DNA from: a virus
Virus record (IMG/VR): IMGVR_UViG_3300045988_042664
Span: 1 to 22,505 of that record
DNA length: 22,505 nt
Direction: 5' to 3' (one strand)
This document shows positions 1-22,505 of the stretch, in pieces. Position 1 is the first letter of the stretch. Every line of letters begins with the position of its first letter. Made by a program: the position numbers and the translations under genes. The notes beneath the pieces are model-generated. The model made no database searches, was not told the DNA's origin, and worked only from the letters and a program-made list of their open reading frames with translations.

Positions 1-35
1 ATGTAAAAAATTGGAAAATAGGTGGTGATTAAGGA

Positions 36-2053: not shown

Positions 2054-2074
2054 ATAAAAGGAAGGAGTGAAAGT

Positions 2075-3292: not shown

Positions 3293-3950
3293 TGAAGCTA
3301 AGCCAAATGAAGCAGACCTTGAATTGTACGATGAAATTGGTGAGTCTACAGACTGGTGGACTGGAAAGACATCAGGCATCAGTGCCGAATCAATCACTCA
3401 GTTTTTAAAGGAAAATCAAGATGTAGATACAGTTAATTTACATATTAATTCAAATGGTGGATTAGTATTTGAAGGAATCACAATTCACAATATTTTGAAA
3501 GGGTCTGATAAAACTGTAAATGTAATCATTGATGGTTTAGCTGCATCAATTGCGAGTGTAATTGCGATGTGTGGTGATACTGTAAAAATGTATCCAACAT
3601 CACAAATGATGATTCACAATTGTTGGACGTATGGATGTGGTAATGCTAATGATTTTAGAAAGTTAGCCGACCAAATGGACAAGATTATGGACTCATCAAG
3701 AATCGCATACCTAAGTAAAGCTAAAGATAAGCTTACAGAAGAAAAGCTTAACGAGTTGTTAGACAATGAAAGTTATTTAACCGCTCAAGAGTGCTTTGAT
3801 TTAGGATTGTGCGATGAAATCATTGGCGTAGACACTTCGAAAAAAGAAGGTGTTAAAGCCGATGAAAAAAAGGTACAAAAGGTTGAAGAACCTTTAGAAA
3901 AATCACCAACTATTGAACTTTTAAATAAGGAAAATGGTTGGTTTTTTTAA
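3252..3950 (+). CDS. ClpP-like (S14) prohead maturation protease
   Basis: ClpP-like motifs IDGLAASIASVIAMCGD (Ser) and MMIHNCW (His). I prefer the ATG at 3252 (AAAGGAGGG at 3236-3244) over the track start at 3231. It overlaps the portal 3' end. Confidence 0.85.
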   Translation: MPKMKVMQMRMQVNEAKPNEADLELYDEIGESTDWWTGKTSGISAESITQFLKENQDVDTVNLHINSNGGLVFEGITIHNILKGSDKTVNVIIDGLAASIASVIAMCGDTVKMYPTSQMMIHNCWTYGCGNANDFRKLADQMDKIMDSSRIAYLSKAKDKLTEEKLNELLDNESYLTAQECFDLGLCDEIIGVDTSKKEGVKADEKKVQKVEEPLEKSPTIELLNKENGWFF

Positions 3951-3975
3951 TGTAAAAAAATAGGAGGATAAATTA

Positions 3976-5169
3976 ATGAAAACTAAAGAAGAATTATTAG
4001 AAACATTAAAACAAGCTATCGATGACAAAAGCTCAGATGGTTTGTTTGAAGCATTAAGCAATTTAATTGAAAATCAAACAGATTCAAAAGCAGAACAGAT
4101 TTTGCAGGAAGCATTACGAGTTGATGATTCAAATATTTTAAAAGCACGTGGTGCTCGTCAGTTAACTTCTGCAGAAAAAGCTTTCTACAACAAAATTATT
4201 GATGCAATGCGTTCTGACAATTTCCGTCAAACAATCGACAACATCAACACAGTATTACCTGAAACAGTTATCGAGGATATTTTCTCAGAAATCGAAAACG
4301 AACATCCTTTATTGTCTAAATTAGACATCCAGGTAGCATCTGCAAAAGTTAAATTATTGTTCGGCGTAGCAGGTGATAACAAAGCGACATGGGGTAAATT
4401 GACTGATAAGATCGTTACTGAAATTTCAGGATCATTCGAAGAAATGGATATTTACCAATTAAAGGTAAGTGCTTATGTTCCAATTCCGGAATCAATGCTT
4501 GATTTAGGTCCAGTGTATTTAGACCGATTTGTTCGTACGTTGTTATATGATGCATTATCAAACGGTATCGAAGATGCAGCATTGAACAACTTGGCATCTG
4601 ATAAAGGTCCTATCGGTATGATGGCAGATTTATCTAAAGGAACAACAAACAGTGGTAAAACCACTTACACTGCTAAGACTGCTAAAAAAGTAGTTAATTG
4701 GACACCAAAAGGCTTGGCAGATGTAATCAAAGCCATGGCAAAAGGTCGTAATGGCAAAGCTCGTAAGGTTACTGGCTTATTCATGGTAGTAAGTCCTGAT
4801 GACTACTATGGATTAGTTAAACCTGCAATTTGCATCCAAACTCCTGCAGGTGACTGGGTAGAGAAATCACCATATCCTATCGACATCATCCAATCAGTAT
4901 ATTGTCCAACTGGTAAAGCTATCATGGGTATTGATAAGAAATATATGATGGGTATTGGTACTGCTCAAGCAGGTAAACTAGAAACATCTGATGAGTTTGC
5001 ATTCTTGGATGATAATCGTACTTATAAAATCAAATTGTATGGTAATGGTCAACCAAAAGATAACAACGCATTCCAGGTATTAGATATTACTGGATTGAAA
5101 GAGTTAGCTTTCAAAGTTGATTCAACTACTACAGTAGAAGGTCAAGTAAATACAAAAGCAGCTGCTTAA
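3976..5169 (+). CDS. major capsid protein (HK97 fold family)
   Basis: 397 aa with a strong SD (TAGGAGGA). It sits directly after the prohead protease. The N-terminal ~100 aa are helical and charged, like a delta/scaffold domain. Confidence 0.85.
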   Translation: MKTKEELLETLKQAIDDKSSDGLFEALSNLIENQTDSKAEQILQEALRVDDSNILKARGARQLTSAEKAFYNKIIDAMRSDNFRQTIDNINTVLPETVIEDIFSEIENEHPLLSKLDIQVASAKVKLLFGVAGDNKATWGKLTDKIVTEISGSFEEMDIYQLKVSAYVPIPESMLDLGPVYLDRFVRTLLYDALSNGIEDAALNNLASDKGPIGMMADLSKGTTNSGKTTYTAKTAKKVVNWTPKGLADVIKAMAKGRNGKARKVTGLFMVVSPDDYYGLVKPAICIQTPAGDWVEKSPYPIDIIQSVYCPTGKAIMGIDKKYMMGIGTAQAGKLETSDEFAFLDDNRTYKIKLYGNGQPKDNNAFQVLDITGLKELAFKVDSTTTVEGQVNTKAAA

Positions 5170-5194
5170 TCCATAAAAGAAAGGTGGCATCTAA

Positions 5195-5473
5195 ATGGAT
5201 GAATATTTATTAGGCTTAATCAAGACTGATTTAGGCTACAAGTGGTGTGACGATGCCACAAACGAAAAACTAAAACATTTAATCGCAGAGGGATTAGCTT
5301 ATCTGAAGAAGTATAGTCCTTCTGCAGATTTTCAAAGTGATGAATTTTCTAGAAGTTTATTAAAGAATTACGTGCTATACGCTTTATCAAATGCAACTGA
5401 TGATTTTAAAGTTAATTACAAAGATGAGATTCTTCTCTTTAGTGATTTAGGAAGGGCAAGCGATGTTAGTTAA
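5195..5473 (+). CDS. head-tail connector protein (gp6-like)
   Basis: 92 aa with SD AAAGGTGG. It is the first small gene after the capsid gene. The call rests on position and size. Confidence 0.55.
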   Translation: MDEYLLGLIKTDLGYKWCDDATNEKLKHLIAEGLAYLKKYSPSADFQSDEFSRSLLKNYVLYALSNATDDFKVNYKDEILLFSDLGRASDVS

Positions 5474-5846
5474 GAAGCAGTCACAAGGTAATACGACTTT
5501 TAATGATGGAATCTTGAAATCTGTATCAATTAAAAATGGTGGCATCTTGAAAGACATATCAAGCTACATTCCATTTGGTCAAAAGACAGTTGGATACAAT
5601 CGTTTTTTCAGAGCGTACAACAACGATATTAAAATATCGAAAGTTGTGGTTGTTCCTTTTGAATCAGGACTACAAGATGCAGATTATGTTGAGTGTGGCT
5701 TTTTTAGAGAACCTAATCACCCGAGCATTTATAAGGTAGTTCAATGCCAAGAGTTATTGGACTCAAAGCCTATGTGCCTTCAGTTATCTTTAGAAAAAGT
5801 CAAAACAAAGTTTGATGATAGGAGATTGAATGAGAGTACAAATTGA
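5463..5846 (+). CDS. head closure / head-tail adaptor protein
   Basis: 127 aa, overlapping the upstream gene by 11 nt. The call rests on its position in the connector module. Confidence 0.5.
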   Translation: MLVKKQSQGNTTFNDGILKSVSIKNGGILKDISSYIPFGQKTVGYNRFFRAYNNDIKISKVVVVPFESGLQDADYVECGFFREPNHPSIYKVVQCQELLDSKPMCLQLSLEKVKTKFDDRRLNESTN

Positions 5847-6192
5847 AGGATTGGCAGAGATGAAAAAAGCCTTAACGAAAAAGAAAGTTGCAGTTGAAAA
5901 GATAGCCTCGGCAGTTACAAAAGCAGGAGAAAAGGCCGAACAAGTAGCAAAGGATTTAGTTCCTAAAGATAGTGGAGCATTACATGATAGTATCCAACAT
6001 AAATATGTAAGTGGTGGTAAAACAGTTATCATTGATGCGCCTGCTAAGAATTCTAAAGGTGTTGAATACACCCAGTATGTCGAGTTCGGCACTAAAAAGC
6101 ATGGACCTGCTCAAAAGTTTATGCGACCTGCACAAGATGAAGGAAAAAAAGTGCTAATTGAAGAATGTAAAAAGTTGGTGGAGACAAAATGA
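5830..6192 (+). CDS. HK97 gp10-like tail component
   Basis: 120 aa with SD TAGGAGA. The motif GTKKHGPAQKFMRPA resembles the conserved region of the HK97 gp10 family. Confidence 0.6.
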   Translation: MRVQIEGLAEMKKALTKKKVAVEKIASAVTKAGEKAEQVAKDLVPKDSGALHDSIQHKYVSGGKTVIIDAPAKNSKGVEYTQYVEFGTKKHGPAQKFMRPAQDEGKKVLIEECKKLVETK

Positions 6193-6563
6193 TAAGTGAA
6201 TCAATTTATGAATTATTAGGACAAGAACTTGATAAAAAATATGATACATATTATTTAGATCAAGCACCTGATGATGCGAATTGTCCATATATTCAGATGT
6301 ATTCGATTTATGACAATCCGAGCCAATTTAAAGACTGCGAGAATGGATATTTTAACTTAGATGTTCATGTATGGCACTATCGTTTAGATAAGCGAAAAGA
6401 AGTAGCAAACATTATGGACGATATTTTGCGTATCGCAAAGCAACTAAAAATCGAAGGCCATTCGGTAATGTGCTTATGTGACGGTAGGCGAATATTAGTC
6501 GACAATTCCACAAGTACAACGTACTTGCATGGAGTAATCACTTTGAATTTTAAATATATTTAA
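6189..6563 (+). CDS. tail terminator / tail completion protein
   Basis: 124 aa with an ATGA overlap to the upstream gene. It is the last gene before the major tail protein. The call is positional only. Confidence 0.45.
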   Translation: MISESIYELLGQELDKKYDTYYLDQAPDDANCPYIQMYSIYDNPSQFKDCENGYFNLDVHVWHYRLDKRKEVANIMDDILRIAKQLKIEGHSVMCLCDGRRILVDNSTSTTYLHGVITLNFKYI

Positions 6564-6581
6564 TTAAGGAGGATATAAAAC

Positions 6582-7079
6582 ATGGAAAGTGTACATGGTA
6601 GCAAGATTATTTATATGTATCGACCATTGTCAGAAGCTAAAAAAAATGCAGCATTGCGTTTAGCTTTTGTAAAAGAAAATGGTAAAACTGTATCAACTGA
6701 TGCAGATACAACACAAACAAAAGATGGTGCATTGCGTTCACCTAGCCAAGCAGAAATTGAAATCACTTCTACATCTGTATTAGCAAGTGATGATACGATG
6801 ATTAGTTTATTGGAAAAAGCTCAGTTAAACAACGAAAAAGTCGAAGTATGGGAAATCAATTTAGCTAAACCAGGAACTGCTAGCGGTAAATATAAAGGAA
6901 CATATTATCAAGCTTATGTTACTGAAATTGAAAAGAGCTCACCTTCAGACGATTGGGCAGAGATGTCATTAACGTTCGGAATCGAAGGAAAAGGAGCTGA
7001 AGGCGATGTAACTGTGCCTCAAAATATGCTTGACGAAGCATTGTATACATTTACTGATACAACTGCTCAAACGAAATAG
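6582..7079 (+). CDS. major tail (tube) protein
   Basis: 165 aa with a strong SD (TAAGGAGGA). It is followed by an intrinsic terminator and precedes the chaperone pair and tape measure. Confidence 0.7.
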   Translation: MESVHGSKIIYMYRPLSEAKKNAALRLAFVKENGKTVSTDADTTQTKDGALRSPSQAEIEITSTSVLASDDTMISLLEKAQLNNEKVEVWEINLAKPGTASGKYKGTYYQAYVTEIEKSSPSDDWAEMSLTFGIEGKGAEGDVTVPQNMLDEALYTFTDTTAQTK

Positions 7080-7094
7080 TTTTCTAAAACTATA

Positions 7095-7118
7095 GGGAGA
7101 TTTAGTTCTCCCTTTTTT
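7095..7118 (+). terminator. rho-independent terminator after the major tail gene
   Basis: GGGAGA (7095-7100), a 6-nt loop and TCTCCC (7107-7112), followed by TTTTTT (7113-7118). Confidence 0.6.
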
Positions 7119-7179
7119 ATTTATTTTTATTTATGCGCATAAACAAAAACGAAAAGAGACAAAAAAGGAGACTTAACTT

Positions 7180-7584
7180 ATGAATATGCAATTAGAAATT
7201 AACAGAACAACATATGAATTTAGATTTGGCATTGGGTTCATGAAAGAGATTCAATCTCGATATAAAGAGATGGCTTCAATTTCAGTAGCAATTCCAAACG
7301 GATTCAAATACGTGGTAGCTAGTATGCTAGACGGTCATATCGAAGATTTGTTTGATATTCTATACACTGCTAACAAAACAGAAAAGCCACGTATCACAGA
7401 AAAAGCTTTAATGGAATATTTAGAAGATGAATCAACTGATATTGAATCGTTAATTAAAGAAGTAAAAGCTTTTTTATTAAAAGCCAATGCATCGAAGAGC
7501 TTGATGAATCAGATTATGGAAGCATTGGCAGAGGAAGCGGGAGCGGAAACGACAACAACAAAAACAAAGACGAAAAAGAAATAG
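7180..7584 (+). CDS. tail assembly chaperone (gpG-like)
   Basis: 134 aa with SD AAAGGAGA, immediately upstream of the tape measure module. The -1 frame is open across its last ~125 nt. Confidence 0.65.
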   Translation: MNMQLEINRTTYEFRFGIGFMKEIQSRYKEMASISVAIPNGFKYVVASMLDGHIEDLFDILYTANKTEKPRITEKALMEYLEDESTDIESLIKEVKAFLLKANASKSLMNQIMEALAEEAGAETTTTKTKTKKK

Positions 7585-7623
7585 ACTACATCACAGAGAT
7601 TTATGATGATGTAGCTTTTTTTT
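7573..7623 (+). promoter_or_regulatory. candidate -1 frameshift signal (AAAAAG slippery run plus downstream hairpin)
   Basis: AAA AAG lies in the zero frame at 7573-7578. After a 7-nt spacer there is an 8-bp hairpin, CTACATCA (7586-7593) pairing with TGATGTAG (7607-7614), then a T8 run (7616-7623). Confidence 0.4.
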
Positions 7624-7634
7624 GCTTTAAAAAT

Positions 7635-7958
7635 TTGAAGTTTACATCGTTTGAGCAAGTTGATCGTGTGACTTTGGCCGAATATAAATTGATGCTTAAA
7701 ACTAATTTAAGCAGAGAAGAAGAAAAAGAGTACGACCGTCATTGGAGGGCCTTTTTACAAATGGCAGTGCAATCGACAGTCGGAAAAGGAAAATCACAAC
7801 GAATGCGTTATTCAAAATTTGAAAAGTTCTATAACAGAAAAAAAGCAAAAAAAGAATTGGATAAGATATTAAATCCAAAAAGCGAAAGCAAAACAGAAGA
7901 AGAGTCTCGTATTAAAAGATTAATTGAATTTAAGAAAAGAAAGCGAGGCGATGAATAA
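7635..7958 (+). CDS. gpT-like frameshift extension of the tail assembly chaperone
   Basis: The track ORF opens only at a TTG with no SD. Its frame is open from 7458 and is -1 relative to 7180-7584. Its stop overlaps the tape measure start (TAATG). This matches the conserved G/GT arrangement. Confidence 0.55.
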   Translation: MKFTSFEQVDRVTLAEYKLMLKTNLSREEEKEYDRHWRAFLQMAVQSTVGKGKSQRMRYSKFEKFYNRKKAKKELDKILNPKSESKTEEESRIKRLIEFKKRKRGDE

Positions 7959-10900
7959 TGGCAAGTGGTGAAAACTATAAAGTTAATGTCACCTTGAGTG
8001 CTAATGATAAGAACCTATCGAAAACATTATCAAGTGTGACAAAACAAAGTGATTCATTCCTTAGTAAGCTTAAAAATAGTGCGGTATTCGGTGCATTTGC
8101 TAGTGTAGGTGCTAGTGCGATGCATACAGTCACAAGTGCGATAAGTGGAACTATATCAGAGCTTTCATCTTCAAATGTTGCATGGAAAACGTTTGAAGGT
8201 AATATGCAGATGTTAAGCCAGTCAAGTGGTGAAATCAACAAAACAAAGAAAGCGTTACAACAATATGCCACACAGACTATTTACTCTGCATCTGATATGT
8301 CTCAGACTTATTCACAGCTTGCCGCAGTAGGCACAAAGAACTGTTTGCAATTAGTAAAAGGCTTCGGTGGATTAGCATCGGCCGCAGAAAATCCACAACA
8401 AGCGATGAAAACATTGTCGCAACAAGGTACTCAGATGGCCGCAAAGCCAATGGTAGCTTGGCAAGACTTTAAGTTGATGTTGGAACAAACTCCTGCAGGT
8501 ATTGCAGCAGTTGCTCGTGAAATGGGTATGAGCACTTCTGAACTTGTTAGTGCAGTGCAAAGTGGAACTGTTAAGACCGAAGATTTCTTTAATGCGGTGG
8601 AAAAAGCTGGTAACAGTAAAGCGTTCACTAAGATGGCTACAGAGTATAAATCTGTTGGTCAAGCAATGGACGGATTGCAAGAAACTTTAGCTAACAAATT
8701 AATGCCTGCGTATGACAAGCTTAGTCAAATTGGAATCAAAGCGTTAAGCTCAATCATTGATGGATTAGATGGATTTGATGCGAATATATTAACGAATGGA
8801 ATCGATAAAGTTATCGATACATTCAAAAGATTTGGTAAAGCATTTGAAAACACAGGCGCAATTAAAGCATTTAAACAAGCACTAAGTGATGTCGGTGGTG
8901 CAATTAAGAATGTAATGAGCCAATTCAAAGATACAGGATTGATTGAAAAGTTTGGCCAAGCATTTGGTCAAGTGGTCAAATTTGTATCACAAGCTATAAG
9001 TGCAGTAAGTAAATTTATTGGTAAATTAAATGGTGCTCAATTGAGTGGTATCGTTGGTTCAGTGTTAGGAGTTGTAGGTGGATTTAAGGCTTTTAATTTT
9101 TTGAAGAGTTTTAATCCATTTAATATTTTCAAGAAAAATGCAGAAAGTGGTGTGGAAGGCGCTACAAAAGCACTTGGTAGTTCACGTAGTAAAGTTGCTA
9201 CCATCATAAAATCAATCGGTCAATCAATCAGCACTGCATTAAAAGGATTAGGGCAAATGTTAAAAGTTGCTAATCCCGTAAATATTCTGGCCTTAGGTGG
9301 AGCATTGTTCATGGTAGCGGCAGGAATCGCTTTGATTGGACAAACTGGTAATGGTTTAAGTTCAATTGCAGAATCACTTGGAAAAGCATTTAGTGAAGTT
9401 ATTGCAACTACAATTGATGCAGTAACTCAAGCATTGATTGCATTAGCTCCGGTATTACCTACAATTTGTGATGCGTTCGCACAATTGAGTCCATTAGTTG
9501 AAGCATTCGGTGATGCATTCGGCACAGTGATTGAATCGGTAGGCAATGCAATATCTAATATTGTAAATGCGATTGGTCCGGTAATTGAAAGTGTTGTACA
9601 AATCATAGCCAATGCGATTGTACAAATCGTACAAGCTATTGCTCCGTTTGCACCTGCAATTGCAGATATGGTACAAGCTATATCTGATGCAATTCAATCA
9701 ATTTGTGATGCATTTATTACTTTAGTTCAGAATATTCAACCAATCGTTGAATCGGTCAAAGATTTAGTTCAACAATTAGGTGATTCAATATCACAAGTAT
9801 TTGAGTCTGCATCTGATGCGATCACATCATTCGGTGATGCAGTAAGTGGTATTTTAGATTCGTTAGCAGGTGTGATTGATTCAATTGGACAGTCCGCATT
9901 GAATGCAGGCAAAGGATTCAAGGAATTAGCAAAAGGAATCCAAATCATTACAGGTTTGAATTTGCTCGATATGGCCGCATCATTAGGAGCAGTCGCAACA
10001 GGTGTAGGTGCGATAGCTACTGCATCAAGTGGTATTGGTGATGCAGGTACTCAAATCATGAGTCTAGCAATCGGATTAGGATTGATGGTCGGATACACAG
10101 AAAGCCTAAGCGCATTAGCTGGTGTAATGCCTGGTGTAATTGCATCATTTAGTGGTATCGAATCAATTGCAGGTCCATTAGCTAGTGCAAGTGGTGCTAT
10201 GATTCAATTTGCATCAAGTTTAATCATAATCACAAGTGCTACATCTGTAGCTAGTTCATCATTGACCGCATTAAGTAATGCTTTAATGCAAGTTGCAAAT
10301 CAAGGTGGGCAAGCAGGTACTCAATTAGGTACTAAATTTAAGACTGGATTACAGAGCGGATTAACTCAATCGGTGAGTGTTGCTCGCTCAATGTCGAAAA
10401 GTATTACAAGTGCTTTAAAATCAGCTTCAAGTGGTGCGTATTCGGTCGGTCAAATGATTGGTAATGGATTGGCTAATGGTATGGCTAGCACATTAGGAAG
10501 AGTAAGCGCAATTGCTACACGATTGGCACAAGAAGCAGAAAAGGCTACTCGTGCAGCTGCTAAAGTTCATTCTCCATCAAGAGTGTTCATGCTAATCGGT
10601 AATTACATCGGTAAGGGGTTCGCAATTGGTATTGAGCAAACTGAACGAATGGTTAGAAAAGCTACTGAATCAATTGTAAGCATTCCTAACGCTCAAGCAT
10701 TGGATGGCTATGGATTTAGAATGGACGGAGTAAGTAATGTTAATTCAACGACTTATGATTTTAATTCAAATCAGAATTTCACATTTAATTCAACGTTGAC
10801 TTTAGATGGTCGAACATTAGCTAAGGCTTCAAATAGATACACTGAAGAAGAGTTGAACAAGAGTGCTAAATTCAAAGAAAGATTGGCAGGTGTTGTGTAA
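7958..10900 (+). CDS. tail tape measure protein
   Basis: 980 aa, rich in Ala/Gly/Ser/Ile with long helical periodic repeats and predicted hydrophobic segments. It occupies the canonical position after the chaperone pair. Confidence 0.9.
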   Translation: MASGENYKVNVTLSANDKNLSKTLSSVTKQSDSFLSKLKNSAVFGAFASVGASAMHTVTSAISGTISELSSSNVAWKTFEGNMQMLSQSSGEINKTKKALQQYATQTIYSASDMSQTYSQLAAVGTKNCLQLVKGFGGLASAAENPQQAMKTLSQQGTQMAAKPMVAWQDFKLMLEQTPAGIAAVAREMGMSTSELVSAVQSGTVKTEDFFNAVEKAGNSKAFTKMATEYKSVGQAMDGLQETLANKLMPAYDKLSQIGIKALSSIIDGLDGFDANILTNGIDKVIDTFKRFGKAFENTGAIKAFKQALSDVGGAIKNVMSQFKDTGLIEKFGQAFGQVVKFVSQAISAVSKFIGKLNGAQLSGIVGSVLGVVGGFKAFNFLKSFNPFNIFKKNAESGVEGATKALGSSRSKVATIIKSIGQSISTALKGLGQMLKVANPVNILALGGALFMVAAGIALIGQTGNGLSSIAESLGKAFSEVIATTIDAVTQALIALAPVLPTICDAFAQLSPLVEAFGDAFGTVIESVGNAISNIVNAIGPVIESVVQIIANAIVQIVQAIAPFAPAIADMVQAISDAIQSICDAFITLVQNIQPIVESVKDLVQQLGDSISQVFESASDAITSFGDAVSGILDSLAGVIDSIGQSALNAGKGFKELAKGIQIITGLNLLDMAASLGAVATGVGAIATASSGIGDAGTQIMSLAIGLGLMVGYTESLSALAGVMPGVIASFSGIESIAGPLASASGAMIQFASSLIIITSATSVASSSLTALSNALMQVANQGGQAGTQLGTKFKTGLQSGLTQSVSVARSMSKSITSALKSASSGAYSVGQMIGNGLANGMASTLGRVSAIATRLAQEAEKATRAAAKVHSPSRVFMLIGNYIGKGFAIGIEQTERMVRKATESIVSIPNAQALDGYGFRMDGVSNVNSTTYDFNSNQNFTFNSTLTLDGRTLAKASNRYTEEELNKSAKFKERLAGVV

Positions 10901-10903
10901 ATC

Positions 10904-12436
10904 ATGCTATATGGATTTAGAGATACGACAGACACAAGTGGCGCACTAGGTAGTAATTTACCTAGTGAAGCCATGAATTTTAATGGAAAGTTTTTAGAAA
11001 ATGAAATACCAGGATATAGAACATTGACTGTAAGTGGTAGAGAATTGATTGGCTCTGAATTTAAAGTTAAGGACATTGAAGGGCTTGATGGTACGATTTG
11101 GAAAGAAAAATACTTGAAGCCACGCACGATCACAGTGAAATATCAGATAAATGCATCTAGCAATAAAGAATTTAGAGACGCGTATAACAAGATGAATTTA
11201 TTGCTAAGTGGTGAACAAGTTAAGATTTATTTTAATGATGAAACTGATAAATATTTCATTGGCACTAAAACTTCAAATGATGAAGTGGATGGTGGCACAA
11301 ATTATGTAATTGGTGAAATCGAAATCTATTGCTCAGACCCACGCAAGTATTCGACAACAGAAAAAGAATTTACTGCTACTGATGGAGTTTTGAACATTGT
11401 AAATGAAGGTACAGTGCCTGTAAGCATCGATTATGAAATTCAAGCAACATCTGAAACTGGATATATTGGTATCGTATCAACTGAAGGAGTAATGCAATAT
11501 GGCAAAATTGAAGAATTAGATTCTGAATCATATCAACAGAGTGAACATTTAGTTAGCATCAACAACTTTTACAATTGTGCAGATGACATTGGTGGAACGG
11601 ATGTAATGCATCCTCAGTACGGTTCGAACGGTACATTAGCCGAACACACTTGGTTTAATCAAAAGTTTATTGGATTTGGCACTGTTGGAGCAAAAAAAGG
11701 GTCTGCGAGTGGTGGATTAAGAACCTTGGTAATACCTGCAGATTCAAATGGAGATACAAGTGGTGCTCAGAACTTCTATTGTTATTTTCATTTGTTGTTT
11801 TATGCAGGACTTATGGGTCAGACTGGTGAAATGTGCATCAACTTCTTGACTGCAGATAACAAATTGATTTGTGGATGTAACTTTTATAAAACAGATACAG
11901 TCGGAAATACAGGACATTATGAGTTTTGGGCAAACGGCAAAATGCTTAGAAATTTCTCATATACAACTTCACATTTACACACACAAAATCCTTGGTATTG
12001 GAATTGGGGACATTGCGATGTTTTAAAAGAAGGTGGAAACATTAGGTTCTTCTATTGGGATGGATATTACAACTATTATATTCCGGAAATTGCAAACATG
12101 AAGTGTGCTAAAATTCAAATTGCGTTTAAACAATGGGGGGATAGAAGTGGTAATCAATTCATGTCTATGATGGGATTTGATGTTATCAACTTCACAAAGA
12201 ACAATGTTTCGAAATGGAGAGATATACCAAACAGATATCCAAGTGGTACAAAGATTACAATTGATGGTGAATCATCTCATGTTTATGTGAATGGTATGAG
12301 TAGACCTCAAGATGAGGTGCTAGGAACTAAGTATTTTAAAGCACCAGTAGGAACTACAGAGATAAAGACTACTTGCTCAAGTTGGTCAAAATCAAAGCCA
12401 ACAGTGAAAGCTAGGATTAGGGAGGCATGGTTATAA
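10904..12436 (+). CDS. distal tail protein (Dit), extended form
   Basis: 510 aa, directly after the tape measure. The N-terminal ~150 aa look like the siphovirus tail-component family. The protein is about twice the length of classical Dits. Confidence 0.65.
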   Translation: MLYGFRDTTDTSGALGSNLPSEAMNFNGKFLENEIPGYRTLTVSGRELIGSEFKVKDIEGLDGTIWKEKYLKPRTITVKYQINASSNKEFRDAYNKMNLLLSGEQVKIYFNDETDKYFIGTKTSNDEVDGGTNYVIGEIEIYCSDPRKYSTTEKEFTATDGVLNIVNEGTVPVSIDYEIQATSETGYIGIVSTEGVMQYGKIEELDSESYQQSEHLVSINNFYNCADDIGGTDVMHPQYGSNGTLAEHTWFNQKFIGFGTVGAKKGSASGGLRTLVIPADSNGDTSGAQNFYCYFHLLFYAGLMGQTGEMCINFLTADNKLICGCNFYKTDTVGNTGHYEFWANGKMLRNFSYTTSHLHTQNPWYWNWGHCDVLKEGGNIRFFYWDGYYNYYIPEIANMKCAKIQIAFKQWGDRSGNQFMSMMGFDVINFTKNNVSKWRDIPNRYPSGTKITIDGESSHVYVNGMSRPQDEVLGTKYFKAPVGTTEIKTTCSSWSKSKPTVKARIREAWL

Positions 12437-15400: not shown

Positions 15401-16251
15401 CGACTCACAATAATTTTCGTTGGGGTATATATATTGATATTTCAGTAGAACCAAATACAACATACACTCTTTCTGTATATTGTAAAAATGGAACTAAACC
15501 GCCTTATGTCGGTGGCGGCCCGAGGTCAAAATCATCTATGGGTATGGGTAATTCTGATATTGTTTCAAATGCAGAAAACGGTACAAGATTTATTCAAACT
15601 TTAACCACTAGTTCATCACATGATACATGGCGTGTTTATCTACATATATTTCCTACAACAACTGGCCAATATGCTTATTTTAAATTACCAAAACTAGAAT
15701 GCGGTAACAAAGCTACAGACTGGACTCCTGCACCTGAAGATGTAGATGAAGCAATCAATACAGAACGTACAGAACGACAATCTGCAATTGAGACAAAAGC
15801 GAATGAAATTACTGCGAAAGTTAGCGAAACTTACGTATCAAATTCGGCTTTGAATCATTATAAAGAAGAAGTATCTACTCAGTTTAGCCAAACTAAGAGC
15901 GATTTTACGTGGTCAATTAATCGAAGCGTGACCGATGCTAAAAATGAAATAAATGGTCAAATCAGCAGTGTGAATGGTAGATTGGATGGTTTAAAACAAA
16001 CTGCAGATAACGTAAATAGTTATATGTCTTTTGATAACGATGCATTGACTTTAGGTAAATCAGACAGTGCATTTAAAACTAAGATTACAAACCAAGAATG
16101 GTCGATTCAAAAGAATGGTGCAAAGGTAACATATATAAACGATCAAACAATGTACATCACAGATGGACAATTCACGCAGTCTTTAAAAATTGTTTCATTT
16201 GGATTTGTGCCAAGAGCAAATGGCTCGCTAGACTTCAAGAAAGTAGGGTGA
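12436..16251 (+). CDS. tail-associated protein (Tal) with long coiled coil and C-terminal fibre-like extension
   Basis: I prefer the ATG at 12436 (GGGAGG at 12420-12425, TAATG overlap with the Dit stop) over the track start at 12427. It is the third gene after the tape measure. It has an Ala/Gln/Lys/Asp-rich coiled coil encoded at about 14280-15250. The motifs IGGRNLILNS and ECGNKATDWTPAPEDV are common in Gram-positive phage antireceptors. Confidence 0.75.
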   Translation: MEQIRIAVLTPYDKVLAFLDNTVPSAMHYFDETLHTYLKGSAYTFEFTTLTAHDDAAFLVEGNKLSFTRKNKGYYLTIMNVEKGGNTTNVTAYGLCLELTNEYVDAYKAPRAMSFAEYVNAYGFEQSFVIGKNEVSDKRITHEWTGSDTVLARLYSIANVFDAELEFVAQLNDDYSLKNFVLNIYRAHSDSVQGMGSDKRSTTLRYPNDVYGITKTSDITELYTGIRPTGNNGLQLNSISGRVVKDSNGNILYKVQDNNILAPQSRDRFPSTLLTNHSNDMYAVLVWSYETENVETLYGQALAQLKKNCVPKVTYDVDAYIDADIGDTFTIEDAEYNPTLYLEARITEQEICFTDSEKCKTIFDNFEEKQSQISSALISEMNKMIELKKVYEGSIVSSNGVLFKTDSDSTKLTALVKDDGVDITSKYSIIWYKDDEQISTSQTITVNASDFTEKAVYRFKAMSGEILKASAEVTVMRLQDGQNGTSAYVHIAYANSSDGRVDFSLTDSNRKFIGQYSDSKQHGSDDPTKYRWSAIKGEDGQSFVSAEEQFYYSTSQTELIGGEWFVGNVVYQSDKFLWKRWKCTYANPNEIKYTKAIFDNTWNEIDAKIGVIHTQVSQANVQSKEAVEKATQAKTDASKANELANTANTQSSEAKQLAQDANTSTGKAQEQIDAIKGDITDSKQQIQDAVDKANANASEIATVKETYATKVDLTTESKSIHADVTTEIEKKVGELSTTVSETYASKSDLTSIEGSLNTKIKQNADSITTQASSIEKLQSDTTKAQKDIIDATKKATDAQAQADKALGNAQSAQTLADQAKKKADSAQTNLDNANKELADAKANLESVTGRVDATESEITKAQTRLTNAETAVKKAQTDATKAQGNATTAINNAKAAQGAADDAKQKAEQAQKDLAELTNKVAFNTTKIEQNSDAIKLQAKSITETSNKVDNLQIGGRNLILNSKDLTQWTFEPGMSVTKEDEWFKVLNTTHNNFRWGIYIDISVEPNTTYTLSVYCKNGTKPPYVGGGPRSKSSMGMGNSDIVSNAENGTRFIQTLTTSSSHDTWRVYLHIFPTTTGQYAYFKLPKLECGNKATDWTPAPEDVDEAINTERTERQSAIETKANEITAKVSETYVSNSALNHYKEEVSTQFSQTKSDFTWSINRSVTDAKNEINGQISSVNGRLDGLKQTADNVNSYMSFDNDALTLGKSDSAFKTKITNQEWSIQKNGAKVTYINDQTMYITDGQFTQSLKIVSFGFVPRANGSLDFKKVG

Positions 16252-16255
16252 TTAA

Positions 16256-18133
16256 ATGGCAGAATTTAGTGGTGGAATACAAATTGGTAGTGGTCAGTGG
16301 GATAAATACTCGTTAATATTACGAATCAATGAAATATCTTATTCTGTTGAAAACAACACATCATATGTAGAGTGGTGGGTTGGTATTCGATCTAATACGC
16401 AGTACCATACACACAATGGAATTCCAGAAACATTTAAAGTATCCGTGAATGGTACTCAAGTGTTAGATCAAAGCTTTACACCTAATGTTCCAGCTGGAAC
16501 TCTTGTCGCTGTAAAAAATGGAACTGTAACTATTTCGCATGATGCAGATGGTTCAAAAACAATTTCGGCAAGTGCATCTTTCAGTGGAAGTAACCCTGGA
16601 TATTATGCACCTATTACTGGTTCTTGCAGTGGTACAGTTAAATTGACAACTATTCCAAGAGCATCAAGCATATCTATTGATAGCCCTAGTATTGAATGTG
16701 GTAACACTATTAATATTAACGGTTCGAGTGCTTCAAAGAACTTTACGCATAAAATCTATGCAACATGGAATGGTAAAACAAGTGAATTAACAACGATAAG
16801 TGGGACATTAACACCCACTTTTTCTTATACGATTCCTACCGCATGGGAAAAGGATTTGCCTAACTCGACAAGTGGTATCGCAACATTTACCTTAGAAACA
16901 TTCAGTGGTTCAACGTCAGTTGGCTCTAAATCGGTAAATGCAACTATCAAAGTCAGAAGCGGTGTAGTTCCTTCGATTGATAGCATCAAAATAGCAGATG
17001 CAAATTCTGTATGTGCAGGAATTGGGCAGATAGTTCAGTCGCAATCTAGGTTGAATTTTACAATTACATATAGTGGTGCACAAGGCTCAACTGTTACATC
17101 TGTATCAACCGAATTTGAGGGGCAAACGTATAACAATAGCTCATTTACTACTGGTACTGTACAAGGTAGTGGTAGCATTACCTATACAACAACGATCTAT
17201 GATTCACGTGGTAGAAGTTCACAAATTAGTGGCAAAGTAACTGTATCTGCATATAGTTCACCTAGCTTAACGAATGTGACTGCAAGACGTGCTAACTCAA
17301 GTTATACAGTTGATGAAGCAAGTGGAACGTATGCGTTATTGCACTTCAAAGTAGGATTTACTAGTTTAACTGGTAAGAATGTGACGTCATTCTATATCCA
17401 ATATCGAGCTAGTGGAGCTAGTTCATGGACGAAAATAAATTCATGGGATAACAACTATACTCTTGAGCAAGACTACAAAGCAGGTAATTTATTTACATCC
17501 GCAACAAATTCTTATGAAGTGGCATTCGGTGTTAAGGATAAGTTCATGAATGACTACTCATGGCAAATCTTTACTGTAACACCTACTTACTCGTTAATTA
17601 ACTTTGGTAAAGATGGAAGATCATTAACGTTCTTCGGTCAAGACGGAAACCAAAAAGATACACTAACCGTATTAGGCGATATTGTAGCTCCAATGTTTTT
17701 AAATAAAATATTCCCAGTTGGCGCAGTCTATATCACATACGACAAAAAGAACCCAGGAACATTCTTGGGTGGAACTTGGGAACAGTTCGGTCAAGGTCGT
17801 ACACTAGTCGGAGAAGGTACTGGAAACGATGGTAGTACAAGTATGTCATTTACTGCCAATCAAGTGGGTAGCGAATATAAGCATTTACTATCTTTGAATG
17901 AAATGCCGTCACACGCTCATAAACCACATGAATGGGATATCATCACTGCTCAAGGCGGTAATACTGGTTTATATAATATGACTTATTTAGGTGATAACAA
18001 TCGAACAGGAGTATTTAATCCTTTTATTCAAGATTATGATAAGAATCGATATGGATCATACGTTGGTAATGACATTCCACACAATAATATCCAACCATAT
18101 TTAGTTGTTTTCTTTTGGCGAAGGGTAAAATAG
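16256..18133 (+). CDS. distal tail fibre / receptor-binding protein with tail-collar-like C-terminal domain (active orientation)
   Basis: 625 aa. The N-terminus resembles the siphovirus DUF859 family (MAEFSGG...VEWWVGIRS...TVTISHDADGSKTI). The C-terminus carries collar/MdpB-like motifs: FPVGAVYI...GGTWEQ, EMPSHAH and PHNNIQPY. Confidence 0.75.
   Translation: MAEFSGGIQIGSGQWDKYSLILRINEISYSVENNTSYVEWWVGIRSNTQYHTHNGIPETFKVSVNGTQVLDQSFTPNVPAGTLVAVKNGTVTISHDADGSKTISASASFSGSNPGYYAPITGSCSGTVKLTTIPRASSISIDSPSIECGNTININGSSASKNFTHKIYATWNGKTSELTTISGTLTPTFSYTIPTAWEKDLPNSTSGIATFTLETFSGSTSVGSKSVNATIKVRSGVVPSIDSIKIADANSVCAGIGQIVQSQSRLNFTITYSGAQGSTVTSVSTEFEGQTYNNSSFTTGTVQGSGSITYTTTIYDSRGRSSQISGKVTVSAYSSPSLTNVTARRANSSYTVDEASGTYALLHFKVGFTSLTGKNVTSFYIQYRASGASSWTKINSWDNNYTLEQDYKAGNLFTSATNSYEVAFGVKDKFMNDYSWQIFTVTPTYSLINFGKDGRSLTFFGQDGNQKDTLTVLGDIVAPMFLNKIFPVGAVYITYDKKNPGTFLGGTWEQFGQGRTLVGEGTGNDGSTSMSFTANQVGSEYKHLLSLNEMPSHAHKPHEWDIITAQGGNTGLYNMTYLGDNNRTGVFNPFIQDYDKNRYGSYVGNDIPHNNIQPYLVVFFWRRVK
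17834..17854. repeat. left recombination core site (inside the fibre gene)
   Basis: AGTACAA-GTATGTC-ATTTACT. The spacer and inner arm are identical to the right site, and the outer arm matches 5 of 7. It lies within the 16-bp perfect inverted repeat at 17841-17856. Confidence 0.65.
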
Positions 18134-18414
18134 CTACTTGATACGTCTCCAAAAGTAAGTTACCACGTAAGGTTGTACATTATCGTGAGGTTTGTTTCCG
18201 CCTGTTGGATATGTTTGACCGTACCAATAATAATTAGTTCTCTGAGCACGTTCAGTGGCTCTCGTAAAAGGAACATCACTATATGGATTACCATATAATG
18301 CAGTGGTTACATCGGTTTGTTGGTCTAAGATCCAATGCGTATGGCTCGGTAGCTCTTCACGTGTAAGTTTATGATAGTAGTCACCGCCAATCCATCCAGC
18401 AGTAAATGACATAC
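17841..18414. mobile_element. predicted invertible segment carrying two convergent fibre-tip cassettes
   Basis: It is bounded by GTATGTCATTTACTGC (17841-17856) and its exact reverse complement (18399-18414). It contains the active tip (to 18133) and the silent tip (from 18134), with their stop codons abutting as TAGCTA. Confidence 0.6.
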
Positions 18415-18433
18415 ATTTACTTGTAGTAATCAC
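18134..18433 (-). CDS. silent alternative C-terminal cassette of the tail fibre (no ATG start or SD of its own)
   Basis: It is paralogous to fibre residues ~529-625: MSFTA, E(M/L)PSH(A/T)H and PH(N/D)N(I/V)QPY..V..FWRR(V/I)K. The ORF opens at a GTG inside the recombinase 3' end, and no SD precedes that GTG or the internal ATG at 18412. Confidence 0.7.
   Translation of the reverse strand: MITTSKCMSFTAGWIGGDYYHKLTREELPSHTHWILDQQTDVTTALYGNPYSDVPFTRATERAQRTNYYWYGQTYPTGGNKPHDNVQPYVVTYFWRRIK
18401..18421. repeat. right recombination core site (perfect 7-7-7 dyad)
   Basis: AGTAAAT-GACATAC-ATTTACT has 7-bp perfect inverted arms around an asymmetric 7-bp spacer. The recombinase stop codon (minus-strand TAA, 18417-18419) lies in the outer arm. 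Confidence 0.65.
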
Positions 18434-19310
18434 AAAGTAGCTCTACACATTTACGCTTTAATTCCATTTGAGGATGTACGTAGATGTTCATTGTGATTGA
18501 TACGTTGGAGTGTCCTAACAATTCGCTCAGTGATTTATAATCACAACCACATTCAATACATCTTGTAGCGAATGTATGTCTGAGCGCATGGAATTTGAGA
18601 TGTGGTAGGTCAAGTTCTTTTAAAACTCTATTGTAGTAAAGCCTATATTTATTAGGTTCTATCGGTTTATCTCGATTCGTTAATACATAGTTATCTGCAT
18701 CGCCTTGAAGCAGTATTGCGTAATGCATTATCCAAGTGTTCAACGGAATCATACGAGTGCTAGAACGTGATTTAGGCGGTGTTATTGAAAGATGACTACC
18801 GTCTTCTTTTGTGTATGTTCGTATCATGGTTTTGTCGATTTTTAAAAGTTTGGTCTGTACATTTATATCAGACCATTTCAAAGCGCATAGTTCACCTATG
18901 CGTATTCCGGTGTGGATGCATAAAAGTATTCCAAAGTTTTTACAGTTGATCTCAGATTGGAGATGATTAATCAATGAAATTTGATGTTCTTTTTCAAAAA
19001 TCTCAACCGCCTTAGGAGGATGGTAAGGTAACTGAACATCGACTTTGAATGGAAGCGTAAATTTAAGAATTTGAATAATGTCTTTGGCATATTTGAATGA
19101 TATGCCACCTTTTCCATCTTTACGACCATTTTCAAGTTTTTGAAGAATAAACTCCTGCGGAATATCGTTGTTCAAATCTTCAATCTGATAATTGCCTAGT
19201 TTTGGCATGATGTGATTGTGGATCACATTACAATAATTTGTGTAAGTGCTGTATTTTAGATAGATTTTCTTTTCTTTTAACCAAGATGTTAATTTTTCTG
19301 AATATAGCAT
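18417..19310 (-). CDS. tyrosine site-specific recombinase (phage integrase family), predicted fibre invertase
   Basis: 297 aa with the full catalytic set: R137 (TGIRIGE), K180, H241-x-x-R244 (HALRHTFAT), H267 (LGHSN) and Y277 (NIYVH). It has a SAM-like N-terminal core-binding domain and no long arm-binding domain. The family call is secure; the invertase role is inferred from context. Confidence 0.85.
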   Translation of the reverse strand: MLYSEKLTSWLKEKKIYLKYSTYTNYCNVIHNHIMPKLGNYQIEDLNNDIPQEFILQKLENGRKDGKGGISFKYAKDIIQILKFTLPFKVDVQLPYHPPKAVEIFEKEHQISLINHLQSEINCKNFGILLCIHTGIRIGELCALKWSDINVQTKLLKIDKTMIRTYTKEDGSHLSITPPKSRSSTRMIPLNTWIMHYAILLQGDADNYVLTNRDKPIEPNKYRLYYNRVLKELDLPHLKFHALRHTFATRCIECGCDYKSLSELLGHSNVSITMNIYVHPQMELKRKCVELLCDYYK

Positions 19311-19354
19311 TTTTGTTTTACCTCGCTTTTTTTATATTAATAGGAGGATTTTAT

Positions 19355-19603
19355 ATGGTTAAAACACATGAAATCAATTTAAATACTAAATTATGGAATT
19401 TTTTCCAAGAACACGATTTTATTATTCTTGATTTGACGGATAAACAAATCAACGAACAAGATTATGTGTTATTCAAGCAAGTTTCTTTAGATGAAGGCAA
19501 AGAAACGGATACTGGATTATTCAGAATGACACAAATTCGTAGCATCACAACTAACGATGGTTTCAAAGATGGTTATGTGATGTTAAACGTAACTAAATTA
19601 TAG
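19355..19603 (+). CDS. DUF3850-like (ASCH-fold) small protein
   Basis: I prefer the ATG at 19355 (TAGGAGGA at 19341-19348) over the track start at 19238. It is 82 aa. The THEINL...F N-terminus and KDGYVMLNV C-terminus resemble DUF3850 as I recall it. Confidence 0.45.
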   Translation: MVKTHEINLNTKLWNFFQEHDFIILDLTDKQINEQDYVLFKQVSLDEGKETDTGLFRMTQIRSITTNDGFKDGYVMLNVTKL

Positions 19604-19611
19604 ATATTGCG

Positions 19612-19636
19612 GAGTCTAGAAATAGGCTCTTTTTTT
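19612..19636 (+). terminator. candidate rho-independent terminator
   Basis: GAGTCTA (19612-19618), a GAAA loop and TAGGCTC (19623-19629) form a 7-bp stem with one G-U pair, followed by T7. Confidence 0.45.
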
Positions 19637-19662
19637 ACAAAATTTAAAAGGAGGAATTGTAT

Positions 19663-19887
19663 ATGAATTTTGCATCTGCATTTATTTCGATGACTCGTGG
19701 CCACAAGGTTGCTCGTAGTCACTGGAGTGGATATTGGCATATCGTCGATGGAATCATCATGATGCATACGAAAGATGGTATTGATTTAAAATTAACGGAT
19801 TCAGACGATATTGTATATACAATCAGCAATTGTGCATGTGATGACTGGAACATTGTTGATAACTATGGAGTTAGCAAGGAGAGATAG
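19663..19887 (+). CDS. DUF2829 family protein (Tad2-like candidate anti-Thoeris sponge)
   Basis: I prefer the ATG at 19663 (AAAGGAGG at 19647-19654). It is 74 aa. The N-terminus MNFASAFISMTRGHKVARSHWSG matches the recalled DUF2829 signature (M.F..A...l..G.kv.R..W.g), and the C-terminus has the typical DDW.IV ending. Confidence 0.55.
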   Translation: MNFASAFISMTRGHKVARSHWSGYWHIVDGIIMMHTKDGIDLKLTDSDDIVYTISNCACDDWNIVDNYGVSKER

Positions 19888-19890
19888 AAT

Positions 19891-20130
19891 ATGGAACAAT
19901 TGAAAAATGCTAAATGGTGGAGTGCAGCATGCACACGCTGCTTAAAAACAATGTGTCAGACTGCAATCGCAATGATTGGAACGTCACAAATGATGGAACA
20001 AGTGGATCTTAAAGTTGTAGTATCAAGCACTGCTTTGGCTGGAATTTTGTCATTATTGACATCCTTAGCCGGATTACCAGAAGTAGAGACACCCTATACT
20101 GAAGATGAAGAAGCGAAAGAAAATCAGTGA
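19891..20130 (+). CDS. holin
   Basis: 79 aa with SD AAGGAGAG. It has two hydrophobic segments (CQTAIAMIGTS and VVVSSTALAGILSLLTSLAGL) and an acidic C-terminal tail. It lies two genes upstream of the endolysin. Confidence 0.6.
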   Translation: MEQLKNAKWWSAACTRCLKTMCQTAIAMIGTSQMMEQVDLKVVVSSTALAGILSLLTSLAGLPEVETPYTEDEEAKENQ

Positions 20131-20141
20131 GGGCGCTGGTA

Positions 20142-20537
20142 ATGAACTTTGTGATTACTAGTGAACAGATTGTCTGGTGTATGACTTTTATTGGTCTTGT
20201 CTGGGCCACTGTTAAGATTATCAAGGAGCTAAAAAAGCCGAGTGATGATCTTAAAGAAACGGTGAAGAGACATACAGAATTATTGCATCGAGATAACGAA
20301 CGATTGAATTCGCTTGAAAAGATAACCTTGAATCAGGAAGGTATCAATCGCAAATTAGAAGAACATACTCGCATCCTATCAGATCATGATGATCGGTTGG
20401 AAGAGGACAAGAAGCGAGGCGATCTGATGTTAAAGGCGAACATGGCCATCCTCGATGGAATGTTATCGGAAGATGATAAAGAAAGCCTAAAGGCTACACG
20501 AAAGGAAATCCAGGACTTTTTAGTCGAGAAGAATTAG
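20142..20537 (+). CDS. membrane-anchored coiled-coil protein of the lysis cassette
   Basis: 131 aa from the ATG at 20142 (GAGGG at 20129-20133). The track's GTG at 20127 is possible through a GTGA overlap with the holin stop. It has one N-terminal TM helix (IVWCMTFIGLVWATVKII) followed by a charged helical region. Confidence 0.5.
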   Translation: MNFVITSEQIVWCMTFIGLVWATVKIIKELKKPSDDLKETVKRHTELLHRDNERLNSLEKITLNQEGINRKLEEHTRILSDHDDRLEEDKKRGDLMLKANMAILDGMLSEDDKESLKATRKEIQDFLVEKN

Positions 20538-21730: not shown

Positions 21731-21857
21731 GCGTAAAAATAACACATATAAGTGTCAAAATTGTACAAAATGTGCAAAAATTACAATTAAATATCAAAAT
21801 AAGTGTCATAATTTAAAAAAATGACACAAATCCTTCAACTATTTTTCGTATATTTTT

Positions 21858-21889
21858 AGCCTATGATTAAGTTCATAGGCTCTTTTTTT
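21858..21889 (+). terminator. rho-independent terminator downstream of the lysis cassette
   Basis: AGCCTATGA (21858-21866), a 6-nt loop and TCATAGGCT (21873-21881), then C and T7. Confidence 0.7.
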
Positions 21890-22090
21890 ATGCTATTATT
21901 TTTTGTGAGCACCCATCTGACAACCCCAAGGCATTTTCCTACTGCCTAGCTATAGCATATTTACCTGATTTACTAACTGTTTATTAACGTTCTTAATGCT
22001 AATTTATTGAATGGGGACGTCATGAGGGTACTCACATTATTTTTATAGCTCGTGTACTAGCGTATAAGGACTTTCTTGGGTCGTATGAAT

Positions 22091-22119
22091 TTGTACGGCC
22101 TTTGCTTATGTGATATAAT
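22091..22119 (+). promoter_or_regulatory. sigma-A-like promoter with extended -10
   Basis: TTGTAC (22091-22096), a 17-bp spacer, then TGaTATAAT (22111-22119). No ORF of useful length follows. Confidence 0.4.
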
Positions 22120-22505
22120 CAATGCAGGCCAAAACATGAGAATTCTAAGTGAACCATGTTAGCTTGATGTACAAATCTAAGTTAGGCATATAGGTTTATT
22201 AGTATTGATCTATAGTCATTCCAAGCGTGGCTGATTAATATTATTTTTATGCAAGTCGACTACAAAGAAAATAACCCGCTTTTTTCTACCACTGAATAGA
22301 GTACATTCTAGAAGTACTTGAAATGTGGTCTTTTTTTTGTTCAAAAGTATGCTCGTAGCATACATGCTACGCATAAGGCCCTAACCATCGGTGATAGATT
22401 CTGATAAAAGAAAAATAAGCAAAGTAACAAACGTTAATACAAAGTGAAGGGAATGAAAGCAAATATTTAGTTATATTATTTTTCTAGTTAATTTTAAAAA
22501 TAAAT

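Follow-up and report, generated by a model that had tools for sequence, protein, structure and literature searches.

Known inversion systems

The Rin shufflon, described from prophages of Bifidobacterium breve and Bifidobacterium longum (Mavrich et al. 2018, PMC6109161) and found also in prophages of Eggerthella lenta (2022, PMC8778435), is the closest known system to the locus considered here, which consists of a tail fibre gene, a silent copy of its tip and an adjoining tyrosine recombinase gene in 22,505 nucleotides of viral DNA (IMG/VR record IMGVR_UViG_3300045988_042664, positions 1 to 22,505), this whole stretch being referred to below as the window. The locus is very probably a site-specific DNA inversion switch, in the minimal two-cassette form of a shufflon, within the tail module of a siphovirus. 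Its likeness to Rin is extensive. A phage-encoded tyrosine recombinase without an arm-binding domain adjoins the gene of a receptor-binding protein (RBP), a role that is predicted for the fibre of the window; a constant N-terminal part is served by promoterless C-terminal cassettes of ~90–100 residues, which lie in both orientations; a short asymmetric crossover site opens each cassette; related prophages differ as isomers; and the carriers are siphoviruses of Gram-positive gut bacteria. With Rin as precedent, therefore, the system of the window is not new in kind, and a first-pass annotation of this DNA, in which a tyrosine-recombinase version in a Gram-positive siphovirus was thought to be possibly undescribed, has to be corrected on this point. 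The differences lie in the hosts, Actinomycetota for Rin and Bacillota (Erysipelotrichaceae) for the window family; in the site, which is the 11-bp rix in Rin (TTCCCTAACCC, PMC6109161) and the 19-bp GTAnAn-GTATGTC-nTTTAC here; and in the tips, TP901-1 RBP-like or H-type lectin in Rin and T4 Gp10_C-type (PF21939, 2fkk) with a PxHxH motif here. Set beside Rin, the window family moreover has a junction that appears to split a single folded domain, and carries 2–8 cassettes per locus, with 75 tip types among the sampled loci.

Other inversion systems share some of these features. The shufflon of R64 and other IncI plasmids (recombinase Rci, sites sfx, target gene pilV) has in common with the window family a tyrosine recombinase, short sites with a 7-bp centre and unequal arms, the swapping of C-terminal segments of an adhesin-like tip protein, and multiple nested inversions. 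Its target, however, is the pilV conjugative pilus adhesin of an enterobacterial plasmid, whereas here it is a siphovirus tail protein encoded between Tal and the lysis genes. A tblastn comparison of the window recombinase with 72,556 plasmids gave 263 matched records, led by Enterococcus, Bacillus and Ligilactobacillus, with no enterobacterial IncI plasmid among the matches listed or in the top organism counts of those records. In the Gin/G system of Mu, Cin/C of P1, Min of p15B and Pin of e14, inversion likewise swaps the C-terminus of a phage tail fibre, and hence the host range, the Mu and P1 switches being binary and that of p15B multi-cassette. These systems differ in employing serine invertases, 26-bp sites, a 2-bp crossover and a Fis-bound enhancer, in cassettes that carry a separate tail-fibre assembly gene, and in belonging to myoviruses of Gram-negative hosts; the only recombinase present in the window is of the tyrosine, not the serine, type. 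The hsdS shufflons of Type I restriction–modification systems, which occur for example in Streptococcus pneumoniae, Mycoplasma and Bacteroides fragilis, are similar in that an adjacent arm-less tyrosine recombinase acts where inverted repeats within coding sequence recombine half-genes into alternative specificity domains, although their target is a restriction specificity subunit and their repeats are usually longer. Passages of a survey of programmed inversions name tail-fibre genes among the targets, the examples given there being Mu-like or COG5301 prophage fibres and a PilV–tail-collar fusion (PMC9881135). No account of an Erysipelotrichaceae/Gp10_C family was found in a full-text collection from which most subscription journals are absent, such that an earlier description is possible; the window family seems to be an undescribed variant, distinct in its site, its tip fold and its host range.

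Anatomy of the switch

The fibre gene is followed tail-to-tail by a minus-strand open reading frame (ORF) at 18134–18433, the product of which matches only the C-terminal part of the Gp10_C profile (positions 55–139) and is, as had been recognised at first pass, a paralogue of the last 96 residues of the fibre (34% identity, BLASTP E=3e-18). It was at that time described as having neither an ATG nor a Shine–Dalgarno sequence of its own. No recognisable Shine–Dalgarno sequence is indeed present, but an in-frame ATG stands at 18410–18412, which is the M of MSFTA and from which gene callers derive a product of 92 aa. The two paralogous tips begin at a perfect 16-bp inverted repeat, GTATGTCATTTACTGC, which lies at 17841–17856 with its exact reverse complement at 18399–18414, just as reported before; both copies are read in the same frame, as MSFTA, and the repeat extends to 23 nt at 91% (17834–17856 and 18399–18421). 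By itself its length is only modestly unusual, in that 4 of 200 dinucleotide shuffles of positions 16000–20000 also contained a perfect inverted repeat of at least 16 nt. That the repeat is non-random follows rather from the fact that it stands in frame where two paralogous tips begin, and from its conservation at the starts of 196 cassettes in relatives. The features are collected in Table 1.

Table 1. Positions in the window of the fibre gene, its two tips, the sites and the recombinase gene
Feature	Position	Strand	Description
Fibre ORF	16256–18133	+	625 aa; Pfam DUF859 (E 2e-44) and Gp10_C at residues 482–624
Fibre constant part	16256–17840	+	Residues 1–528 (about 529); DUF859 and first ~50 Gp10_C residues; PHROG 372 tail protein
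Left site, GTACAA-GTATGTC-ATTTAC	17835–17853	+	In fibre frame (codons S-T-S-M-S-F-T); proposed 7-bp overlap 17841–17847
Invertible segment	17841–18414		574 bp, outer end to outer end of the perfect repeat cores
Tip cassette A, type T09	17843–18133	+	Expressed now; 96 codons and stop; PSHAH motif, last strand NIQPYLVVFFWRRVK
Tip cassette B, type T04	18134–18412	-	Silent now; 92 codons from the ATG within the site
Right site, GTAAAT-GTATGTC-ATTTAC	18402–18420	-	Perfect 6-7-6 palindromic arms; overlap region 18408–18414
Tyrosine recombinase, putative invertase	18417–19310	-	297 aa; PF14659 (Phage_int_SAM_3) and PF00589 (Phage_integrase)

When the segment is flipped in silico, the fibre frame runs uninterrupted for 621 aa, as had been predicted, and the recombinase ORF is unaltered. 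In the proposed mechanism, the adjacent arm-less tyrosine recombinase would bind the two inverted 19-bp sites, one of which lies in the fibre frame at the MSFT motif and the other at the start of the promoterless paralogous cassette, tail-to-tail with the fibre. Strand exchange within the asymmetric 7-bp GTATGTC would then flip the 574-bp segment, such that residues 1–529 become joined in frame to tip B (621 aa) and not to tip A (625 aa), with tip A passing to the silent slot. The likely outcome would be that receptor specificity alternates among the progeny. Tips A and B adjoin stop to stop with zero spacing (TAG directly followed by CTA), and these abutting stops form the palindrome TAGCTA (window 18131–18136; also 6912–6917 of the related locus L014 and 2460–2465 of L013), so that the same geometry is restored after inversion.

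The position of the junction within the protein can be considered with reference to the C-terminal domain of T4 gp10 (2fkk), with the first ~50 residues of which the end of the constant part aligns, the cassettes aligning with the remainder, including the final strand NIQPY....WRR. On this alignment the recombination junction would fall inside one Gp10_C-type folded domain, of which, it is proposed, the constant part gives the N-terminal third and the cassette gives the PxHxH motif, a variable middle and the conserved last strand. An AlphaFold2 model of fibre residues 470–625, made from a 23-sequence alignment, had a mean pLDDT (predicted local distance difference test) of 46.8 and was discarded. 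In public proteins the same constant part (> 97% identical) is joined to at least 8 different tips, all of which diverge at MSFT. Most tips contain PxHxH, which is absent from some types, among them T01, T02, T05, T08 and T13; tips without the motif are exemplified by MSFTTGSTGGTYQHSHEHGNLYAKM... and MSFTANDTGGEYIHSMVRNDIGY... (e.g. P0016; L029, L036, L018), and the same constant part seems to be served by cassettes of two structural classes or more. The tips probably set receptor specificity and, with it, host range, as is suggested by the position of the gene after Dit and Tal, the tail annotation of the family and an extreme diversity that is confined to the cassette.

Inversion isomers among natural relatives

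The product expected of inversion has a near-identical counterpart in nature. P0021 (621 aa, locus L013), a 99%-similar fibre that came from the 90%-identity cluster of the window's fibre, consists of a constant part near-identical to that of the window joined, at GNDGSTS/MSFTAG, to the window's silent tip with 1 residue different; tip B of the window is an intact ORF, 99% identical to the expressed copy. The first-pass annotation had suggested that related prophages be searched for the segment in the opposite orientation, and such a relative exists in L020, in which window positions 17834–18418 align inverted to 6013–6597, at 97.4% over 585 nt and with breakpoints at the repeats, while the flanks are colinear with the window (fibre constant part 93.9%, recombinase 90.7%). 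Tip A accordingly lies in the silent, recombinase-proximal slot in L020–L022, the place to which it had been predicted to move. The same reciprocal arrangement is seen in P0050 and P0051, where the ORFs of tip A are 103 aa long and open with M(I/T)TTSKC, a prefix that arises because the reading frame runs through the recombinase-proximal flank.

Exact isomers are found in L014 and L023, the recombinase of which is 96.3% identical to that of the window. L014 expresses tip D with tip E silent, and L023 has the reverse; once 6588–7163 is flipped in silico, the two show 0 differences over positions 1–11054 and only 6 mismatches, all beyond 11055. Both are MEGAHIT k141 contigs, from two samples or assemblies, and misassembly at a 19-bp repeat is unlikely in contigs built at k=141. 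Since no substitution has accumulated near the switch, inversion must be fast with respect to point mutation, and this particular inversion younger than any substitution in that stretch.

Larger arrays show the same behaviour. L013, with 8 tips, and L017, with 7, have flanks that are 99% identical and differ in the flip of a B/F segment (98.7% identity, inverted) and in the relocation and inversion of cassette I, all of these changes being bounded by sites; the change in cassette I is explained by two nested inversions between sites. Isomers are likewise seen in the pairs L028/L039, L040/L071, L043/L055 and L026/L027. Three contigs of metagenome-assembled genomes (MAGs; L001, L002 and L004) end within a site, which fits mixed isomers in the reads and is supportive only; as these are just 3 of 140 locus ends, they are given little weight. 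A fourth match to the site pattern at a contig end, in L065, was rejected as unrelated sequence.

The recombination site

From 65 distinct sites the consensus GTAnAn-GTATGTC-nTTTAC is obtained, running from -8 to +10 with the A of the ATG as position 0, in which G-2, T-1, A0, T1, G2, C4 and TTTAC (6–10) are invariant. Each 6-bp arm is an imperfect inverted copy of the other, the match being perfect in the recombinase-proximal site (GTAAAT/ATTTAC), while the asymmetry of the 7-bp centre gives the site a polarity. This arrangement of two inverted 6-bp arms round a 7-bp centre is that of tyrosine-recombinase core sites in general, the binding and cleavage positions within it being putative. Three unrelated settings show conservation of the left arm, namely the fibre codons S-T-S, the ...YYK-stop end of the recombinase gene (the stop codon of which it overlaps in the right site of the window) and the non-coding spacers between cassettes; the constraint therefore acts on the DNA and not on protein.

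The interval of the crossover is narrowed by L014 and L023, in which a polymorphic base at +5 is carried along with the cassette and the one at -3 remains part of the flank, so that the crossover falls within the 7 bp GTATGTC. The overlap region of tyrosine recombinases is 6–8 bp in length. Moreover, a single centre is used per locus in 60 of the 60 loci with more than one detected site, this being GTATGTC in 53 and GTATGAC in 7. The GTATGAC centre occurs in a divergent clade (61–66% recombinase identity) and again in two members of the 94% clade, where T02 and T11, elsewhere MSFT, have become MTFT along with the fibre site. In other words, the T-to-A change of the centre was made in concert in two separate recombinase clades, which is what a required identity of overlap regions between partner sites predicts.

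A further perfect inverted repeat, of 14 nt (GTATTGAATGTGGT, 16689–16702 and 18546–18559), connects the N-terminal region of the fibre gene with the recombinase gene; it is probably due to chance, since at least 14 nt was reached in 14 of 200 shuffles.

The recombinase

Two domains are recognised in the recombinase by Pfam, a SAM-like core-binding one and a catalytic one, with no arm-binding domain, and the catalytic residues of the enzyme are all in place (R137, K180, H241, R244, H267 and Y277). The gene had been described as complete and as ending inside the right-hand repeat. It is complete, and its stop codon (18417–18419) lies 2 nt beyond the perfect 16-bp core, though inside both the extended repeat and the 19-bp consensus site. 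In all loci that yielded both the gene and the cassette array, the two are adjacent. Its nearest relatives in the phage database are unannotated human-gut contigs of at most 40% identity, and its best solved relative is the Tn1549 integrase. In an NCBIfam scan every model fell below its cut-off, those of FimB/E-type invertases far below, and on this account the recombinase is not placeable in a named invertase family.

The stop codon TAA is situated in the left arm of the proximal site, with the ATG of the cassette 4 nt further on (AAG TAA ATGT ATG, window 18408–18420, minus strand), and it is conceivable that the recombinase binds at its own 3' end, or that translation is coupled into the proximal cassette. 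A scan of 17600–20200 for promoters and terminators gave nothing above shuffle expectation, and regulatory claims are therefore not made. As the same scan found no predicted terminator between fibre and recombinase, late transcription towards holin and endolysin would cross the silent cassette and the recombinase gene antisense.

Distant relatives of the recombinase, 37–39% identical, occur in Bacteroidales and were considered as tail-fibre shufflons, an assignment that was rejected, as the copy in L008 sits between inverted paralogues of OmpA-like porins. In this locus, from an uncultured Bacteroidales, the 37%-identical recombinase (5944–6906) is placed between 750-nt inverted repeats (5157–5906 and 6958–7707) that are 78% complementary and encode the two porin paralogues, each of which adjoins an ORF of ~1000 aa without a Pfam match; it may be a different invertible outer-membrane locus.

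A wider family of loci

Some 70 related loci were recovered from Erysipelotrichaceae genomes (Holdemanella and others) and from unassigned metagenome and viral contigs, 52 of them added by a scan of IMG/VR. Over all loci 197 cassettes were mapped, at 2–8 per locus, which cluster at 75% identity into 75 tip types, and 16 of the 75 occur expressed as well as silent. The description of the switch as binary is apt for the window, but does not extend to the family, in which the binary arrangement is the minimal form: an expressed fibre is present in 44 loci, of which 20 have two tips, 12 have three and 12 have four to eight.

In some pairs of loci the invertible segment is more alike than its flanks, at 97.4% against 90.7–93.9% for the window and L020, and at 98.9% against 89.6–93.2% for L040 (3469–4001) and L071 (4050–3518). 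This suggests horizontal exchange of cassettes between phage lineages, or a recent sweep. A hybrid cassette occurs in L017 at 7139 (minus strand), which, on comparison with L013 2184 (plus strand) and L017 7161 (plus strand), has the first ~10 codons of tip H (MSFTTDSSGG) followed by tip B (DYYHKLTREEL...), and suggests that gene conversion took place, or that the crossover lay outside the core site. A truncated cassette of 57 aa, T19, is found in L013 at 3648–3821 (plus strand), where it ends at the beginning of the next site (3802), and also in L021 at 1341 (plus strand); it seems to have been left behind by a deletion, or by aberrant recombination, involving sites in direct orientation.

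In public records the silent 92-aa cassette is called as a separate gene, under the names 'Baseplate structural protein' or 'microcystin-dependent protein'. The annotated silent cassettes fall in the P0001 and P0002 clusters (P0022, for example, is DAE43104.1), and one sequence is present on up to 57 contigs; current annotation does not recognise the shufflon. There is a somewhat better than even chance that the window represents the first recognised case of a widespread, undescribed family of tyrosine-recombinase RBP shufflons in siphoviruses of human-gut Erysipelotrichaceae, characterised by a 19-bp site, a shared pool of tips (at least 75 types over ~70 loci, 2–8 per phage), the swapping of half a fold and the movement of cassettes between lineages.

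Alternative explanations

Certain points weigh against an inversion switch in the window. The part of the adjacent recombinase as catalyst is deduced from adjacency and site architecture, and that of the DUF859/Gp10_C protein as putative RBP from gene order and homology to the C-terminal domain of T4 gp10. The sites of relatives were detected by the regular expression ATG[AT]CnTT[TC]AC, which admits no other centres, and the test for uniform centres covers detected sites only. Moreover, an identical recombinase is present in 5 public contigs, all five with the window's gene layout, which, like the recombinase, is matched by contig L012 (ERZ1308115); the protein collection contains neither a 621-aa chimera of precisely the predicted sequence nor the precise reciprocal silent ORFs (96 and 103 aa), near-identical versions of which came to light through cluster members and homology search; and a search of IMG/VR for the exact predicted inverted junction gave zero matches.

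The single layout and the missing exact chimera are what might also be expected of a frozen relic. The family would then be a real shufflon, but the copy in the window, with its two cassettes, would have arisen from a larger array by deletion and would have lost its ability to flip wholly or almost wholly, leaving tip B dead; sites in direct repeat within larger arrays could indeed delete cassettes, and truncated ones such as T19 do exist. Such decay is improbable for a locus in which both sites fit the consensus perfectly and have identical 7-bp centres, in which the recombinase is full length with its catalytic residues complete and tip B is intact, and which has equivalent binary loci, L014 and L023, that are exact isomers. 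The binary form is, moreover, the commonest in the family. In this regard, flipping of this exact copy would be expected.

A still less likely explanation is that the short conserved repeat encoding MSFT served for general homologous recombination of the RecA type, or for the exchange of modules by co-infecting phages, with some other role for the recombinase. The mosaic nature of the tips, as in the hybrid B cassette of L017, and the invertible segments that are more conserved than their flanks are in keeping with exchange of this kind. A repeat of 16–19 bp is, however, very short for RecA-mediated exchange, and homologous recombination would account neither for the conservation of the left arm outside coding constraint nor for a crossover limited to 7 bp, a centre that is uniform within loci and has changed in concert in independent lineages, and a recombinase gene that is always adjacent and has its stop codon within a site. 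A last possibility, that the enzyme is the integrase of the prophage, has an unrelated attP as its substrate and lies close to the duplicated tips by coincidence, agrees with its generic Pfam/PHROG annotation as 'phage integrase' and with Tn1549 integrase as its best solved relative, but is scarcely credible for an arm-less protein of only 297 aa that is encoded between tail and lysis genes, outside any lysogeny module, and that has its own candidate site flanking the gene in every relative, with inversion isomers bounded by those sites.

Genomic context and host

Read by Pfam and PHROG domain matches, the window is the structural and lysis module of a siphovirus, in the order TerL, portal, ClpP-type protease and HK97-type capsid, then tail tube, tail assembly chaperone and tape measure protein, and finally Dit, a 1274-aa Tal-like protein, the DUF859/Gp10_C protein, the switch, holin and amidase endolysin. 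Between fibre and holin there is, besides the silent tip and the tyrosine recombinase, one 82-aa ORF without a family match. The INPHARED phage collection gave zero DNA matches to the window in either 'near' or 'distant' mode. The nearest genomic relatives of the recombinase are in Erysipelotrichaceae, at 94% identity in a Holdemanella MAG, 74% in Floccifex, 64–68% in Erysipelotrichaceae MGYG-HGUT-03689 and 61% in the cultured isolate Firmicutes bacterium M10-2. The carrier is best explained as a siphovirus or prophage of gut Erysipelotrichaceae with a Holdemanella-like host.

Past the endolysin, positions 21731–22505 of the window are AT-rich and without a long ORF. In relatives the same position (L014 10698–11914; L020 62–2449) is occupied by genes for a PemK-family toxin, PadR and HAAS, and on this basis the end of the window may be a moron region or the end of a prophage.

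Significance

The silent cassettes are annotated as small genes and assemblies can break at the sites, with the result that such loci are systematically mis-described. The 19-bp site together with the 297-aa recombinase is a candidate inversion tool for Bacillota, and a cultured carrier exists in Firmicutes bacterium M10-2 (locus L005, which is binary), so that direct testing is possible. For the phages themselves, the switch would give temperate gut phages a pre-programmed alternation of receptor specificity, in up to 8 versions per genome, such that host range would become a property of the population and not a fixed trait. This would bear on the prediction of hosts from metagenomes, on the dynamics of gut phages and their hosts and on the design of phages whose specificity can be switched or locked.

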